From Neophaeotheca triangularis (lineage: Eukaryota), in assembly GCA_054600435.1 (NCBI GenBank), contig BAAIJX010000033.1, forward strand, positions 62,001 through 126,000: a stretch of DNA of 64,000 nucleotides. Reading direction: 5' to 3'. Both the position numbers and the translations under genes were made by a program. Position 1 is the first letter of the stretch, and each line of letters begins with the position of its first letter. The notes beneath the pieces are model-generated. The model saw nothing but the letters and a program-made list of their open reading frames with translations, did no database searches and was not told where the DNA came from. Shown piece after piece: positions 9,006 through 64,000 of this stretch.

Positions 9006-10524
9006 ACGCCTCTTGATTGCCACACGTGAAGCCAATCGAATAGGGACAACAGCAGGCTGGGCGAGAAGGGGTAAGGTTGGAGCAAATGACAGGTGTCAGT
9101 AGCAAAGAATTGCGGACGATGCCATTCTCAGACGTGTTGCCTTAGCGCTAGCTTACGTACTTTTCCAATTACAACTACCATGAAACTTCTCGCTATCTGC
9201 AGGGCAGCTACCTGACCAAGGCCATTGGGCCCCCCTTCCCCGTGTGGGCGTTTCCAGTCACCACCATAGCGCTGAAGCTTTGCGTAACAAAAGTCATAAG
9301 TGTTTCTTGTAAGGTTGATTATACACGTTGCAAGATCTTGATGAGAGATAGTGAATCCCTTCGCGGAGAGCTGATCACTCGGATGCGGGAAAGAGGACTT
9401 GAAGCAAAGTAGGTACCAGAGAGGTCCTTGTGGACATCGGGAGATATGGGTTTTCAGCCGTATGACGGCGTTGGAGATTTGAAGGAGAGGCACGTCTTCG
9501 ATAGCAAAGTCCAATCGTAGCCGATGCTCTTGACAGCATGCCAGCCTTCGTCGTAAGTAGCTTTTTTGATGGCGGTAGGGTGCCTTTACCTGACTGTTTG
9601 GGACTAACTTTTCCCTTGTTTTGTAGCCTGGCACTCTAGTGGGTCAAGCTCACAATAAAGTAGAGCCTTGTTGGCAGCTTCTTACTTCTATCCATGATTA
9701 TTGCATACTGTTGTGGACTCCAGAGAAAGGATGAGCAAAGGTCCCAAGAGCTCCTTGGATCTACAGAGCAGTAGCTATAGGAGCACGACACGATTGTGTA
9801 GCTTGCTCTATCAACTCCATTGCAGGTAAGTCAAGTCAGATTACATAGCATGCGGAATCAGATCAACTCGTGAGTAATGACTAGACAGAAAGCGGCGGAT
9901 TGGCTATGGGACACCGCAAGTGAGCTTGTGATTGTCCTGTGTTACGTCGCCATGGCACTTAGGACTTGGATTCTGGAAGGTAATTTCCCTTGCAATCAAT
10001 CGATGTCTGCATTGGCATTGTTTCTATATGTATGTGTCGGGCCCGATTGTTAGGGTTAGGGTTTGGTTACGCTTATCCCTGAAAATCGCTTCCTTACCCG
10101 TTTTGACGCTTCCAACCGGAAACACATTGACGTTTCAACAGTCGCGAGTTCGCGCACGATGCAGCCCTGAATAAAGTTGAAGGTGCCGGCAAGATTACTG
10201 CTGTTACTGGTCCATGCTGCTCATAATTTAGTCGGCGGTGACTATGGTACTTGCAAATATCTTGAGATCACTCCCTTACGCATGCCTTGCAGCGAAGACC
10301 AACAGGACTCGACCAGTTCAAGTAGTACCTGGCCGATGGTGGTACCAACAAGCACACGTGCGTAAAGTACATTCATAAGAATACAGAACGAGAACGAACA
10401 CGAGCGTAGGGTGACTGTACTTTTTCGATACACATTTGACCTTGATACGGTCCACCCGATATTTCAACTACCACGAGGTCACGAGGGTTCTCCCTGCCAG
10501 CTAGATAGGTAGTGCAGCAAGCAA

Positions 10525-12594
10525 TCAAACCTGCCCATCGAGCGTCAACCCCTTAGCCCTCTTTGCCAGCAATGAGCTGACATCCCCTTCGCTCTGCCTC
10601 TTCGCCGGTCGTTCGCGTAATGCATCGAGTATCGTCATGAGCGTGGTCCATCCTGTAGTACACGAACCAGTCAGCTTCTATCCAACAGAATCAACAAATA
10701 TAGAGACAAGGCGACGTGTGAGGGGGCTTTTATTACATGGTGCTCTCTAGTGTTACATCTGCAGAATAGTCTCGAGAGTGGCCCAACCTGGTGTTTGCAT
10801 AAGAGCAGCTCCTGTGGACGCATCATGGCTGGTCGCGGTCTGGCAGAGGAGGCGCATTTCGTCCTGCGAGCATGGGTTAGCAAGGAATTTCTGACGGCTG
10901 GAGGCATTAACGATGTGACTTACTTTGGAAAGGACGTCAAGCTTCTTGATGAAACACAGGAGGTGGAAATCGCTCACCGCGACGACACCTTGAGGCTGAT
11001 CCAACGAGACCCTGTCACTACCGGCACGAAGCGCCTTTTGAAGTTCGCGAGTCTCTTGTGTCTCCCCGATTATCTCCCTATTCTCAATTGAGAAGGCCTG
11101 CTTGATGAAGGCCGGTTGCGTCTCGTTCGGGAATCCGTGGGTCAGGGTGACAAGAAGGTATTCGACGGGGAACGAAGGCTTCGCGTTCTCCTGCACGCTC
11201 CGGCCATACTCATTGATGCGACGATAGAAGACTTCGGGAATATATCTCGTTTTCCCGAGCTGAATGTCCTCTTCCTCGTCTTGCACAAGCATGACGCTAG
11301 GGTCGGCCGAGGGCTCAATGATGTCTGCGCGTACCATTTCCACAGAAGAGTTGGTGGCCTGAAAGGCGGAGACGGTGATCTGGCCCTCTTCGTCTCCTGA
11401 GACCACGCATGTGACAAAATTGGATCCGAAACGGCCTGTCTCGCTCCACTTCGATGGTCGGGGGTATTGAGCCTGCAGTCGAGAGGCGAACATGATTTCC
11501 AGCGAAGAGAGATAGAAAGAGTCGATGTGGCGTTTGCAGACCGCATTTCCTTTCTCCGGATCCTCTGGGTTAACAAGGTCCGTGAAGATGACACCAACAC
11601 GTTGTAGGCCGCAGAGAGAAGCCGTCTCATCGACCGAGGCCTCATTCTCCCATTCTCCGAGTGTGACGCCGTCGATCTCATTGATCTGCGGAGGCTCATA
11701 GATAGCTTCCACAACTGCCTTGGTACCGAGAGGAACGGCGTCGTACTGCTCGTATTTGCCATAGAGGAAGCCTATCCGCTGCGCACCACCAGAATTCCGC
11801 CAAAAGCCTAGCAACCTGTCCACGATTTGTGGCGTAGCAAATTCAACATGGTCTACCATACGGTATTCTTGCGGCTGAAGTGTGATGGCGGAAGGTTGAC
11901 ACTTTGTACAGATGCCTGCTGGGAAGTTGGGATGCCCGGAAGGGCAGTTTGGTCGAACTCGGTAATAGGGTTCGCTTAGAGGTGGCATGTATGAGCTTCC
12001 CGATTCGTACTTGTTCTTGCCCTGGTTGAGCTTGCGCAGGTATGAGTGATAGGAAAGGTGCTTGATCTTCTTCTCGTCCAGGTAGTTCTTGTTGTAGGGC
12101 TCCAGGGGCATGCAGTAGTCGCACATTCCCTTAGGCCCGTGCCGACACATCTTCTCGTCCTTCTTCCGCACGATTTTGCCATCCTGCTGGTCCAACTTCT
12201 CATCGAGTGATGACTGCTTAACCGTCTCCCAAGGATTTTTGACATGCTCGTCTTTCGCTGCGGTGGGTATCGCGATGCTGTCCTCTGCGCTGACTTCTTT
12301 GCCATTCAGACGGTTCGCAGATGCTGAGTGGCCATTCGCAACCGGCGCCTCCTCGTCATAGTTCAGGAATATTTGTGTTCCATGAGTGAGTCCAAGCCTA
12401 CCGAACGTCACACCTTGGAGTGACTCTATCGTTCTTGAGTCTCCGCCGTGGGGCTTAGGGCTGATGGTGACAGATGAAGAGACGGTGTCCTTTGGAAGCT
12501 TTTCGAGGACGTCTGGAAGTATGGTTGAGATGTCGGTGGTAGGTTCGACAGTGAGTCGAAACTGGCCATTACGGCTCTGGAAGCGTAGTATCAT
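10525..12594 (-). CDS. NPL4: Nuclear protein localization protein 4 (Cdc48-Ufd1-Npl4 cofactor); intron 10864-10923; proximal stop at 10753 or alternative last exon 10525-10652 via intron 10653-10787
   Basis: [17 protein letters not shown]-terminus, zf-Npl4 ([28 protein letters not shown]) and MPN-like domain ([10 protein letters not shown]...VEAIYEPPQ). Canonical GTAAGT/GCTAAC/CAG intron. Confidence 0.96.
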
Positions 12595-12756: not shown

Positions 12757-12785
12757 GGTAGAGGTAGAGGTAGAGGTAGAGGTAG
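12757..12785. repeat. (GTAGAG)n hexanucleotide repeat in the NPL4/SEC66 divergent promoter
   Basis: ggtagaggtagaggtagaggtagaggtag. Confidence 0.7.
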
Positions 12786-13237
12786 TAGCTAAAACGAAGT
12801 GATGGGTTCAGGTGAAGCTCGCAGATGCAACGGCATCATCAGACAAACGTCAAGCTAAGGTACCTTACCAGGTACTAGTAGTCCAAGCTGGAATGACGCT
12901 CAGGCACCCGCAAAAATCGCAACTACTAAGGTAGACGCTCTCGCACATGCAGCTCGGGAGCTAGCGATCCCGCTGCCGGCTCCATAAGGCAAGACGGTTT
13001 CACGGCAGTCTCCGCTGAGCCGCAAGTAAGAAGTAACGATCACCCGCGGGACTACTTTTGGGACAAGTGGTGCCTCCCTCTGCACATGCACGCTACTGTT
13101 TGATGAATGCCCAAGTTACAGCACACCTTTCCCTACATCGACACCAACTCCTTTCTCACGATACAATACCAAACTTGCAGATTTGACTGGCCATCATTCC
13201 ATCTATTCTGACCGTGCATGACACAAATTGATCCGTC

Positions 13238-14132
13238 ATGGAGAACGCGACCAACTTCACGGACTCTTTCAATAGCACAAATGGCACAGACGGCAATGGC
13301 ACATTCACTGGCTTCACACCACCTCCGAAACCTTTCTGGTCCGGTCTCCCGTTGACTATTTCTTATCTCACCATCCTCCTTGGCTCTCTGTACGCCTTCT
13401 CATCGCTCTACCGGAAACGACAACTTGCACGCCAAGCATCTCTCGAGCCCTGGTTCCCAAGACATCTCTCTCGCGACATCTACCATTCCCTGCTCCACAT
13501 GGACCCCGAAGAGGCAAGCGCTGGGAATGGCGAGAAGAAGCTGAAGAATGTACCGGACTCGGTCTTGAAGGCAGCGTTGATGCAGCGGGCTCTCGAGGAT
13601 ATTCAGCGCATACTACAGCTGCGGACAAGCAAGCAGGCATTACAAACGCTGGTGCAGCGAGGCAGCATAGGAGACGATCTGTGGCAACGATTTCAAAGAG
13701 CGGAGCAAGAGATGGAGGATGAAGTTAAGGACGTTGCGAGCGAGGTGAGCATATGCTTCGGATCTAGATTCTTGCAGAGCTTTGGCTAATGTGTGGAACT
13801 TCTAGGCAAATGCGTATAGCGCTGGCTGGGGTCAAGTTATCTTTCAGTCTGCCAACGAAATGAACCAGAACATCATGATCAGGGAAAGGACTGCTGAGAT
13901 TCTCGCTGGCTTGGAGGCCGAGAAGGAGTGGTGGGATGCAAAGAAGGCTGGCATTCAATCGGAGTTCATGAAGGAACTCGACGAGGATGCAGCAGAGAGC
14001 AAGACGGAGGATATTGTAGCGGCCCCTAAGAAGACTGGTAGTGACGACGATGCCGTGCTGGTCGAAGCAGGTGGACCTGGGACACCACAAGGAGGTGGAG
14101 CGGGGGGAAAGAAGAAAAAGGGTAAAAAATAG
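13238..14132 (+). CDS. SEC66: Translocation protein Sec66/Sec71; intron 13745-13805
   Basis: N-glycosylated lumenal N-terminus, one TM, LEPWFPRHLSRDIY, LKAALMQRALEDIQRI. Splicing gives EANAYSAGWGQVIFQSANEM. Confidence 0.93.
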
Positions 14133-61402: not shown

Positions 61403-64000
61403 TTATTGGCTGCGATCGCTTGGTCGTCGCTGCGTGGTGCTCCTGACCATGCTTCTGCCCCAAGGGCTTGTCCCAAACGAAGCGTCAGCCTCGCTCTGAC
61501 TGATCGCGCTATTTGCTCTGCTTCTGCCTGCCGCATCGTCGCTGGTCAGCCCAGGACTGCCTGGAGGCGACGAACGGTTGGCGTGCTCCAGCGCAGCGGC
61601 AAAGTGCCACTCTGGGTGCATATTGGCTTCTGGCCCGGAGGCTCTGTTGCTGGACGATTGCCGTGACTGCCGAGGTGAGCCGTTCGGTGATGCGGTAGGC
61701 GAAAACTGAATAGAGTTGTTACGGAAGCGCGTACCGCGAGGACTGACTGGTGGTGATCGAGCACCGATGCTGTTGCTCCTTGACTCCCATGCGCGGCCCA
61801 GGTCCAAGCTGTTTGGGGTATCTATGGGGTCGTAGTTGACAGGTGTGACATTCAAGGAAGGTAGGTTTCCCCGTGTTTGCGTCTCGGCTGATTCTTCCGG
61901 GTCGTCTTGGACGAAGATCTCTGGAACGCCGAAGGACGGAACGGCAGTCATACGGGCTGACTTCTTCGCTTCCAACGCTCGCCTGAAGCGACGTGACCAG
62001 TACAGCGTGTCAAAGAAGCCGACGACAATGTTACGATTCACCGCTTCCTCGACACGCTGAAGCCGCGCCCTTCTGCGCAGGAACTCTTCCAGCTTCAAGC
62101 TCTTGTTGTCGTTGATGACCTTGTAGTGTGCGATGATCATGAGTAGCGCGTTGAAGGGAATGCCTCGATCCGGATCGGCCGATACCAACACCTCCTCATA
62201 AAAGGTGTTCATTCGTGCCCGGCGCCTTCGTATTTCAACCACAGGTAGCTCGGATAAACGCTCCCTCAACTTTTCGAGGTCGATCGTATCTGACACGTCT
62301 TTGGTACCATCCATGGGCAGATTCGTTGAAGACGCTGCTGCAGAAACCCTACAATCGTCCATGAGGGCTCTTACTGTAAAGTCGCCATCGTAAATTCGCA
62401 TCTCAAAGACACCGGATAACTCACCCAGGAAGCGTGGGAAAGCTTCCCTTGAAATGTACCCAGACCCGTTGGGATCGAATTCGGCCCAGGCCTGTTTGAA
62501 ACGGCGAATTTCTTCCCTGCTGATGATGCTGAGCCCACTGCTTCGCTGGTAGACGTATGAGAAACTCTCGTAGATCAGCGAGGTGAATAGGTAGACGAAG
62601 ATGTACATGCTCAGGATGTTCCAGGAGATGAAGAGCGCTCTTGCCCATTGCGGACTGCCACAATCACCCTCGTAATACTTTTCGCCAACCGTGCAGTACG
62701 GGGGCACTATAGCGGCGTAGTCTTCCATGAGCTCGTTCCAGCCTTCACCTAAGCTCGTTCTAAAGAGTAGGATTAATGCTTTCGGTACCGTCCTTACGTT
62801 GATGTTGCCGGTGAGTTCCTCGCCGAATCGCGTGAGGCCAAAGGCTTGTGTAAGCGCGATCGCATACACAAGGAAGAGCACAAACCAAGTAGCCAGCAGA
62901 TTTCCAATGGCTGTGAGACTGGCCGCTGCAGTTTTGAAAAGCTGGTCGAGCTGATTGTTTCTCGGGATAAGCAACAGTACCACGGACACTAGGAACAACT
63001 TGTGCAGCTGAACATAAGTCTTGTCGTTGAAATTGGAAAGCAGTAGGATCGTCGTGATGAACGTCCCTCCCACAGCGAAAAGGGAGAAGACGTCCCATGC
63101 GCTCTTTCTGAACCTCGTCCAGGAAAGGCCAATGATGCGTACGATGATATTGGCAATATGGCAGAGAGTCAATGCGAGGAAGATGAAGTCTCTGACTCGA
63201 CTCCATTCCCATTTCTCTGGGTAGTATTCCAAGCACAGCAGTACCAAGTGGACGCCGAGCAGGCATGTCATCACTCTTTGCCACCGTCCAGTCTTGGTGA
63301 TGGCGCGGCGGTAGCACCATTCTTGCCAACTCTGTCTTTTTCTTTTGTTGCTCGGTCGCTTCGACGGCGCTACTTGTCGCAGCAATTTCCTCAGTTCGAG
63401 CCAAGAACGCTGCTCGGTAGTCAAGAAGGCGACGCCGGTCTGTTCGGTGTAGTTGCGCATGAAGACGGAGACGAACAGGGTCAGCACAAAGACAGCACCT
63501 AGCAGGTTGAAAATGACGAAGAAAATAGCATTGCCTCGGCTTGCTGAATCTTCTGGCTGCGTGAAGACTCCAGTGATAGATTCGGCGCTCCACATAACAT
63601 CGATCCAGCCTTCGGTGGACACAATCTGGAACAGAATAAACAGTGACCCGCCGAAGTTATCGAAGTCGTAGTACTCGTTGTCCACTTGTCGAGGTGCAAG
63701 CACGTCCCATTCAAAAGGTTGGCTTAAGTACTCCCCGGTGCAATCCGTAAGGTTGAAGATGTTTGAGTCTCCGTCATTGCAGCTCATCATTTGGCCGGCG
63801 AAGAGGTTGAGGCCGTAAATTGCAAACGGAATAAGCAAGCTCAGCGACACGAAAGCGGCAGACACAACTTTCCACCCACCACGTACGATAACCGCATGAA
63901 AGGTGTCTCGTGCGCTATCGCTCACATTCAGAAGACGCAACGCTCTTAGCGCTTTGAAGGCGCCGACAGCTCGACTGCCACCGCCCGGGTCGTGCAAACT
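61403..64000 (-). CDS. CCH1: Voltage-gated-like calcium channel subunit Cch1 (3' part; 5' end outside the window)
   Basis: S4-like AFKALRALRLL, pore loops FQIVSTEGWIDVMW and LFRTSLGEGWNELM, EF-hand-like FKQAWAEFDPNGSGYIS. Confidence 0.96.
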   Translation of the reverse strand, partial: SLHDPGGGSRAVGAFKALRALRLLNVSDSARDTFHAVIVRGGWKVVSAAFVSLSLLIPFAIYGLNLFAGQMMSCNDGDSNIFNLTDCTGEYLSQPFEWDVLAPRQVDNEYYDFDNFGGSLFILFQIVSTEGWIDVMWSAESITGVFTQPEDSASRGNAIFFVIFNLLGAVFVLTLFVSVFMRNYTEQTGVAFLTTEQRSWLELRKLLRQVAPSKRPSNKRKRQSWQEWCYRRAITKTGRWQRVMTCLLGVHLVLLCLEYYPEKWEWSRVRDFIFLALTLCHIANIIVRIIGLSWTRFRKSAWDVFSLFAVGGTFITTILLLSNFNDKTYVQLHKLFLVSVVLLLIPRNNQLDQLFKTAAASLTAIGNLLATWFVLFLVYAIALTQAFGLTRFGEELTGNINVRTVPKALILLFRTSLGEGWNELMEDYAAIVPPYCTVGEKYYEGDCGSPQWARALFISWNILSMYIFVYLFTSLIYESFSYVYQRSSGLSIISREEIRRFKQAWAEFDPNGSGYISREAFPRFLGELSGVFEMRIYDGDFTVRALMDDCRVSAAASSTNLPMDGTKDVSDTIDLEKLRERLSELPVVEIRRRRARMNTFYEEVLVSADPDRGIPFNALLMIIAHYKVINDNKSLKLEEFLRRRARLQRVEEAVNRNIVVGFFDTLYWSRRFRRALEAKKSARMTAVPSFGVPEIFVQDDPEESAETQTRGNLPSLNVTPVNYDPIDTPNSLDLGRAWESRSNSIGARSPPVSPRGTRFRNNSIQFSPTASPNGSPRQSRQSSSNRASGPEANMHPEWHFAAALEHANRSSPPGSPGLTSDDAAGRSRANSAISQSEADASFGTSPWGRSMVRSTTQRRPSDRSQ

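Follow-up and report, generated by a model that had tools for sequence, protein, structure and literature searches.

Why the gene for Npl4, a ubiquitin-binding cofactor of the Cdc48/p97 unfoldase, should encode the last helix of its product twice is the question raised by a stretch of DNA of the fungus Neophaeotheca triangularis (Dothideomycetes, Dothideomycetidae). The stretch, 64,000 nucleotides (nt) long and called here the window, covers positions 62,001 to 126,000 of contig BAAIJX010000033.1 (assembly GCA_054600435.1), and all coordinates below are those of the window. On its minus strand the coding sequence (CDS) of Npl4 runs from 12594 to 10753 in the open reading frame (ORF) translation, and a second copy of the terminal helix, prolonged by a basic tail, follows behind the stop codon. 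Our analysis suggests that the end of this gene holds two competing 5' splice sites and one 3' splice site, whose use would give mainly Npl4 without the tail and, as a minor or conditional isoform, Npl4 with it; on the comparative evidence set out below, we hold this reading to be moderately probable.

The spliced protein of the window is identical in 593 of 593 residues to the annotated 593-amino-acid (aa) Npl4 of N. triangularis (database protein P0005), from which the unspliced translation differs solely by a 20-residue insert that corresponds to the 60-nt, in-frame intron 1. Both Npl4 families of Pfam are matched in P0005 over their entire profiles, zf-NPL4 (PF05020) at 3.5e-71 (profile positions 1-145 of 145) and NPL4 (PF05021) at 2.1e-132 (positions 1-309 of 309), and residues 1-592 align with the solved Npl4 structures of Chaetomium thermophilum (6chs chain A, E 1.9e-228) and S. 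cerevisiae (6oa9 chain G, E 1.3e-151). Coding exon 1 (10924..12594, minus strand, as are all parts of the gene; start ATG at 12594), in whose translation PF05020 and PF05021 are found and which matches the annotated Npl4 outside the intron, is followed by intron 1 (10864..10923, GTAAGT...GCTAAC...CAG), which is spliced out in RNA contig X1 record 1 and absent from P0005. Coding exon 2 (10788..10863) ends with base 1 of the Gly codon that leads into the helix and would be common to both isoforms.

Past this Gly codon the gene offers two endings. The proximal helix copy together with its stop (10753..10788, TAA at 10755-10753) forms the C-terminus of the 593-aa short isoform, is kept in RNA contigs of runs X1 and X2, and has an ending that recurs in dozens of relatives. 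The distal exon (10525..10652) encodes the helix GWTTLMTIL and a basic tail made up of RPAKR, 11 residues and KRAK, closed by TGA at 10527-10525. As a preliminary description of this DNA had proposed, the terminal helix is indeed duplicated, with a GWATLETIL-type proximal copy and the GWTTLMTIL distal copy; the two share 7 of 9 residues, five of the shared codons differ synonymously, and both copies are present in all 19 related loci examined. At the DNA level the copies are about 70% identical over 27 nt, and a repeat finder run on the window DNA did not report them. With either copy the match to Pfam PF05021 extends to the last profile position, as seen for the proximal copy in P0005 and for the distal copy in the long-form protein P0033. 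The reason for two copies would be that this helix closes the Npl4 fold and the NPL4 domain, so that each isoform needs a copy of its own. In this respect the gene resembles those of S. cerevisiae (6oa9 G, 580 aa) and Chaetomium (6chs A, 659 aa), in whose Npl4 the GW-x-TL-xx-ILQ helix is likewise the last aligned element; yeast Npl4 has the tail-less ending only and Chaetomium Npl4 the tailed one only, whereas the gene of the window would encode both as alternatives.

The related loci were obtained by scanning metagenome contigs with the back-translated proximal peptide, all third codon positions being left free. The 19 loci found in this way make up, together with the window, 17 distinct sequences, on which the site counts below are based; among RNAs, such a pattern is biased in finding only those that retain the proximal copy. 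All 19 loci carry a distal helix-plus-tail ORF, starting 48-168 nt past the proximal stop; the doubled helix thus goes beyond what chance would produce. In the distal exon all of the 125 between-group pairs, or 125 of 125, had pN below pS (means 0.335 against 0.760 by Nei-Gojobori on a codon alignment), and in 11 close pairs the differences at codon positions 1, 2 and 3 stood at 26:5:88. Tail length differs among the loci by whole codons. The distal exon has no conserved start codon, and its frame links to the upstream CDS solely via a phase-1 donor at the Gly codon. Both the conservation and the coding constraint are direct observations, and the earlier view of the distal segment as a protein-coding exon under purifying selection is upheld: its pattern of change is typical of a translated exon and not of an untranslated region (UTR). 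It would be coding in the predicted 624-aa isoform and is 3'UTR in the mRNAs observed.

The splice sites that would connect this exon to the CDS are under constraint of their own. The candidate donor for the long isoform, donor A (GTTGGG, 10782..10787), lies in the context CCAG|GTTGGGCC, in phase 1 within the Gly codon, with its GT at 10787-10786. All 17 distinct sequences use GGT for the proximal Gly and have A as the third base of the preceding codon (CCA in 16, TCA in one); AG|GT is therefore invariant, as would be expected of a splice donor within the CDS. At each of seven further four-fold sites of this stretch whose residue does not vary, three to four codons are in use. The neighbouring invariant Gly is encoded by GGC (13), GGA (2) or GGT (2), and the distal Gly codon is variable as well (GGC 8, GGG 4, GGT 2, GGA 1). 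At the other end, the shared acceptor CTACAG (10653..10658), after which the exon resumes at 10652, is preceded by the branch-point-like GCTGAC (10670..10675), 22 nt before the acceptor AG; all these motifs are present where the preliminary description had placed them. The interval between the copies is unalignable and variable in length, yet CTRAY stands 22-45 nt before the AG in 16 of 17 sequences, and 16 of 17 place a YAG precisely at the distal Gly codon, in a phase that suits donor A alone. In five of the 17 sequences (L004, L006, L015, L016 and L017) the sole GTs able to serve this acceptor are donor A and a GT inside the ATG-stop, and the latter would throw the tail out of frame. Such a stop-overlapping donor (AT|GTAR) was also considered for the window as a route to the tail and rejected, as it leaves the distal exon out of the tail frame and is unused by the window's RNA contigs. 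From this pattern of conservation in 17 distinct sequences we infer that donor A is the 5' splice site of the long isoform. Its intron, whose length the preliminary description had given approximately, would measure exactly 135 nt (10787-10653). Joining 10788 to 10652 leaves an open frame, so that both products, of 593 and 624 aa as had been predicted, are open; both endings are conserved among the relatives.

According to the mechanism that we propose, the short isoform of 593 aa would arise when the terminal intron is kept, or is removed from a second donor behind the stop (donor B, GTAATA, from 10736), since translation in either case would end directly behind the proximal helix. Without a tail, the product is similar to yeast Npl4, and it is the form seen in RNA. 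The long isoform of 624 aa would arise when the weak donor CAG|GTTGGG at 10787 in the Gly codon is used; the proximal helix and its stop would then be removed, the distal helix would substitute for them, and the protein would run on into a basic tail of about 31 residues that is constitutive in other Npl4 proteins of the Pezizomycotina.

RNA evidence in this organism comes from the contigs of four marine metatranscriptome runs (X1, X2, X3 and X6), aligned to 10000-11600 at a depth of about 2. X1 record 1 (262 nt) and X2 record 4 (151 nt), from two runs of one study, show 0 mismatches to the window, and both join 10737 to 10652, skipping an 84-nt intron (10736-10653, GTAATA...CTACAG); X1 record 1 in addition lacks intron 1. 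The shared acceptor at 10653 is thus used in RNA from both runs. Its partner there, donor B (10731..10736), begins 17 nt past the stop and has neither the G at +5 nor the T at +6. The mRNAs observed encode the 593-aa short form, with the distal exon as 3'UTR covered by RNA at 10559-10651. The distal ORF in these mRNAs is in frame yet stands behind three stops (TAA, TAG and a TGA made by the junction). Read-through or frameshifting into the tail was considered as a separate route and rejected on account of these three stops and of an unspliced frame offset that is 0, 1 or 2 among the relatives. The contigs of runs X3 and X6 lie solely upstream of 10925 and are silent on the tail; RNA cover ends at 10559, and the missing cover below it is no evidence in either direction.

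These contigs bear on a different switch, proposed in the preliminary description, in which splicing from 10787 would compete with polyadenylation at an intronic AATAAA to give alternative last exons, the short-form mRNA ending near 10710. The hexamer does exist, at 10734-10729 and not, as had been stated, at 10728-10733. Because it overlaps donor B, the 5' splice site used by the contigs of both runs, the short-form mRNAs observed splice from within the AATAAA region and continue into the distal exon instead of ending at 10710. Among the 17 distinct sequences AATAAA occurs in the inter-copy interval of one, and four contigs of relatives that lack intron 1 read through the entire interval. The RNA contigs are empty below 10559, and some transcripts could end at the hexamer; even so, a choice between splicing and polyadenylation appears very unlikely to us, and the claims of a poly(A) signal behind the proximal stop and of a short mRNA ending there are not sustained.

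Five of the related loci (L005, L008, L011, L014 and L019) were taken as RNA-derived because they are without intron 1, and four of the five retain the whole inter-copy interval. The remaining one, L019 (1500-1600), is without intron 1, branch motif and AG, and is the one exception to both of the 16-of-17 counts given above. Its sequence resumes at the exon-2 start of L008, a relative. It has the look of an RNA in which a donor behind the stop has already been joined to the shared acceptor, which would make it the second such species.

Of the 1267 matches of a protein search based on the last 144 residues, 120 were listed, and the following statements on database proteins refer to these. About 30 named entries of Dothideomycetidae end in GWATL[EQ]TILQ(Q)M, among them Hortaea, Salinomyces, Baudoinia, Friedmanniomyces, Septoria linicola, Elsinoe ampelina, E. 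fawcettii, Myriangium, Delphinella and Neodothiora; the membership of the named species in Myriangiales and Dothideales was checked. Nine entries run on into the second type of helix or the basic tail: Oleoguttula, Polychaeton, Zymoseptoria tritici, Cercospora kikuchii, two of Elsinoe australis, Rachicladosporium, and two models with odd junctions from Teratosphaeria destructans (P0034) and Cladosporium inversicolor (P0052). One of these two keeps the proximal helix joined to the tail past the distal helix, and the other skips both helices. They look like annotation artefacts, because Cladosporium-like loci (L002, L004 and others) have an intact distal helix. Short and long models occur side by side within Elsinoe, which suggests that each genome of the Dothideomycetidae encodes both endings and that annotators chose one. 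The public Npl4 models of Dothideomycetes are hence inconsistent, with about 30 named short forms, nine long forms, a split within one genus and two junctions that skip the distal helix, and each record shows just one of the two possible products. Apart from this, many assembly-derived database proteins (e.g. P0003, P0004, P0007 and P0009-P0019) carry a spurious insert of 17-30 residues at intron 1, which ORF callers read through because it is in frame and stop-free.

Outside the subclass, a single helix leads directly into the tail at the protein level in Leotiomycetes, a Geoglossomycete, a Chaetothyriales species and Chaetomium. Npl4 of yeast ends 3 residues past the helix, and that of Chaetomium runs on for about 65 residues. 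With one helix followed by a tail in the outgroups, the tail would be ancestral in Pezizomycotina and the tail-less alternative a novelty of the subclass. An ancestral tail and the nine long-form gene models would also agree with a gene that makes the long form alone, the proximal copy and its stop being intron sequence that is always removed. This explanation strikes us as barely credible, given that RNA contigs from which intron 1 has been removed retain the proximal copy and stop, here and in relatives, and that in a similarity search with the whole region the proximal peptide GWATL[EQ]TILQ(Q)M was near-invariant across dozens of species, unlike intron sequence. That the contigs might be unprocessed pre-mRNA is argued against by the removal of intron 1.

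Several observations weigh against the two-isoform reading and concern above all the use of donor A. In 15 genomic sequences the intron-1 donors (7 distinct 9-mers) follow GT[ATG]NGT with the G at +5 and the T at +6 invariant, whereas donor A has G at +6, against T in 7 of 7 distinct intron-1 donors, and the less common T at +3. It is suboptimal because of this G at +6; it keeps AG|GT and the G at +5. The X1 and X2 contigs pass 10787 unspliced, and the proximal stop is kept in all five intron-1-less loci. The 10788|10652 junction was not found in RNA or protein of any species examined, in contigs of a kind that drop minor isoforms. For the contigs of the window, in which donor B was seen joined to the shared acceptor and donor A was not, this absence is uninformative, because their depth is about 2 and contigs drop minor variants. 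In the protein lists at least nine short forms are apparently transcript-derived, and all nine long forms are genome annotations, possibly homology-guided. Further searches were made with long-form C-termini and were limited by word sharing (P0033 region, 8 matches from 200 candidates; P0052 region, 52 from 453); a transcript-derived long form was not found among the 120 listed of 1267, the 8 and the 52 matches. For the Cladosporium fulvum gene NPL4 (CLAFUR5_08287), the RNA-seq tables of a genome-wide study of splicing (Tables S5, S6, S11-S13 and S15, PMC11694984) give 3 and 4 transcript isoforms in two isolates, with 2 protein isoforms per isolate. As far as these tables go, what distinguishes the protein isoforms is PF05020, the zinc region at the N-terminus; they are neutral on the C-terminal tail and suggest that the 5' half of the gene undergoes a splicing event of its own. 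The long mRNA of Npl4 remains a prediction.

Taken to their end, these points would lead to a gene that makes the short isoform alone, with the distal exon as 3'UTR behind a 3'UTR intron and the long database models as homology-guided artefacts. Every RNA seen encodes the short form, no long form of transcript origin is among the protein matches listed, and the public model for N. triangularis is the short one. A UTR, on the other hand, would not stay open over some 40-55 codons in every one of the 19 loci and show the codon-position bias and the uniformly low pN described above, nor would it keep an acceptor in a phase suiting donor A only or freeze both of the synonymous sites that form AG|GT. 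We thus judge this explanation to be unlikely, and two isoforms drawn from competing donors remain the reading that we prefer.

How the arrangement may have arisen can be read from the position of its splice sites. Donor and acceptor lie at homologous positions of two direct copies, the proximal Gly bearing CAG|GT and the distal Gly YAG|G in 16 of 17 sequences. That the upstream copy has its GT and the downstream copy its AG at the same codon fits the tandem-duplication model of intron gain, which the preliminary description had also invoked, and the intron was probably created by the tandem duplication of an AG|GT-containing segment. Intron gain by tandem AG|GT duplication is treated in Hellsten et al. 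2011 (PMC3265369), and the potato RdRp gene is presented as a case of intron gain by tandem duplication (PMC4974935). As in these cases, two direct coding copies provide the GT upstream and the AG downstream, and splicing restores the single-copy frame. What is described there is a new intron and not a pair of protein isoforms that has been conserved; the duplication at Npl4 would in contrast be ancient and subclass-wide, and its upstream copy has gained a stop and become a conserved alternative C-terminus.

Alternative splice-site choice that has been kept over long fungal evolution and gives two functional proteins is described for SKI7/HBS1 (PMC3597508) and for other events in Saccharomycotina (PMC7491326), which are conserved and diversify the proteome. 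The Npl4 case is like these in kind and differs from them in gene and clade; those events, as presented there, rest on RNA and genetics, and the Npl4 case on comparative sequence. Npl4 as read here combines known kinds of event, namely alternative C-termini by splice choice and intron gain by duplication.

A further parallel lies in the sorting of fungal enzymes. Work attributed to Freitag et al. 2012 reportedly found cryptic peroxisomal targeting signals (PTS1) on fungal glycolytic enzymes, gained via alternative splicing or stop-codon read-through. In both situations one gene would give two proteins, of which the minor one has a short C-terminal sorting peptide that the major one lacks, the choice being made at the 3' end of the CDS. 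Unlike the cryptic PTS1, the signal of Npl4 would be nuclear, a structural helix has been duplicated for the switch, and the minor isoform is as yet unseen.

Whether the tail is such a signal is a question separate from that of its existence. The bipartite nuclear localization signal (NLS) consists of KR, a linker of about 10-12 residues and K-K/R-x-K/R, and the tail of the window, with KR, 11 residues and KRAK, agrees with this pattern. Three features of the comparison weaken the case for import as its function: in relatives the two basic clusters stand 11 to 17 residues apart, the second cluster is KRVG in Leotiomycetes and misfits K-K/R-x-K/R, and the tail from the helix to the second basic cluster is far longer in other classes. 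An AlphaFold model of P0033, a long-form protein, lends weak support to the distal helix as the end of the fold: this helix (585-596) belongs to a C-terminal part predicted with confidence (residues 541-590 at pLDDT 85-90), the tail (600-626) has a pLDDT below 50, and the mean pLDDT of the whole model is poor (53.5). No Pfam family matches the tail.

From animals, NLS-bearing cofactors (VCF1/2) are reported to raise nuclear p97 (PMC10541173), and p37 is described as a p97 cofactor tied to nuclear import of the complex (PMC11068011). As with VCF1/2 and p37, the NLS of a cofactor would set the nuclear share of the unfoldase complex; unlike these separate animal proteins, the putative NLS would here sit on the core cofactor itself and be toggled by splicing. 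In the literature no report of an NLS in Npl4 itself was found, nor any of fungal Npl4 isoforms, in searches on splicing, NLS, isoform and Dothideomycete genera including Zymoseptoria that covered sources other than subscription journals. We regard it as possible, at somewhat less than an even chance, that the tail acts as a nuclear import signal.

Both isoforms might equally be made with the tail serving as a docking or regulatory peptide, e.g. for a partner of the Cdc48 complex, or as a site of modification or turnover. This would account for the fact that conservation of the tail is strongest over L-[AST]-K-[RK]-[VAF]-x-G and the hydrophobic residue next to it, a motif that goes beyond a basic patch, and it would be compatible with the loss of the fourth basic residue in Leotiomycetes and with the variation in linker and tail length. 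The fit of the window's tail to the bipartite pattern (KR-x11-KRAK), the documented route by which NLS-bearing cofactors bring p97 into the nucleus (PMC10541173) and the lack of a Pfam match to the tail speak the other way, and we consider a role other than import rather unlikely, though a serious alternative.

Two further features were noted in the surroundings of the gene. A perfect hexanucleotide repeat, GGTAGA on the plus strand in 4.8 copies (12757-12785), lies about 165-190 nt upstream of the Npl4 start, likely in its 5'UTR or promoter. Farther on, at 13232-13789 of the plus strand, a frame of 185 codons is open and diverges from Npl4; its product is hydrophobic over a stretch close to the start, charged and helical towards the C-terminus, and it is probably the first exon of a neighbouring gene.

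Conserved splicing that diversifies proteins is rare in fungi, and few cases reveal how the switch originated; the architecture of Npl4 still displays its origin, in two copies of which one holds the GT and the other the AG. Taken as a whole, the picture would be that of an ancient helix duplication which made an intron and a splice switch kept across the Dothideomycetidae, in which the default mRNA gives a yeast-like protein without the tail, and regulated use of the weak donor in the Gly codon yields an NLS-tailed Npl4 that takes Cdc48-Ufd1-Npl4 to the nucleus on demand, as in stress or after DNA damage; put together in this way it remains speculative, and we consider it doubtful. If true, the gene would preserve a clear trace of how AG|GT duplication gave rise to an intron, and the Cdc48 machine would be divided among compartments in a manner new to science. 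Cofactor-driven distribution of p97 is now studied in animals by means of separate NLS-bearing cofactors, and the long form of Npl4, if confirmed, would offer a testable handle on the distribution of a Cdc48/p97 cofactor between cytosol or endoplasmic reticulum and nucleus.

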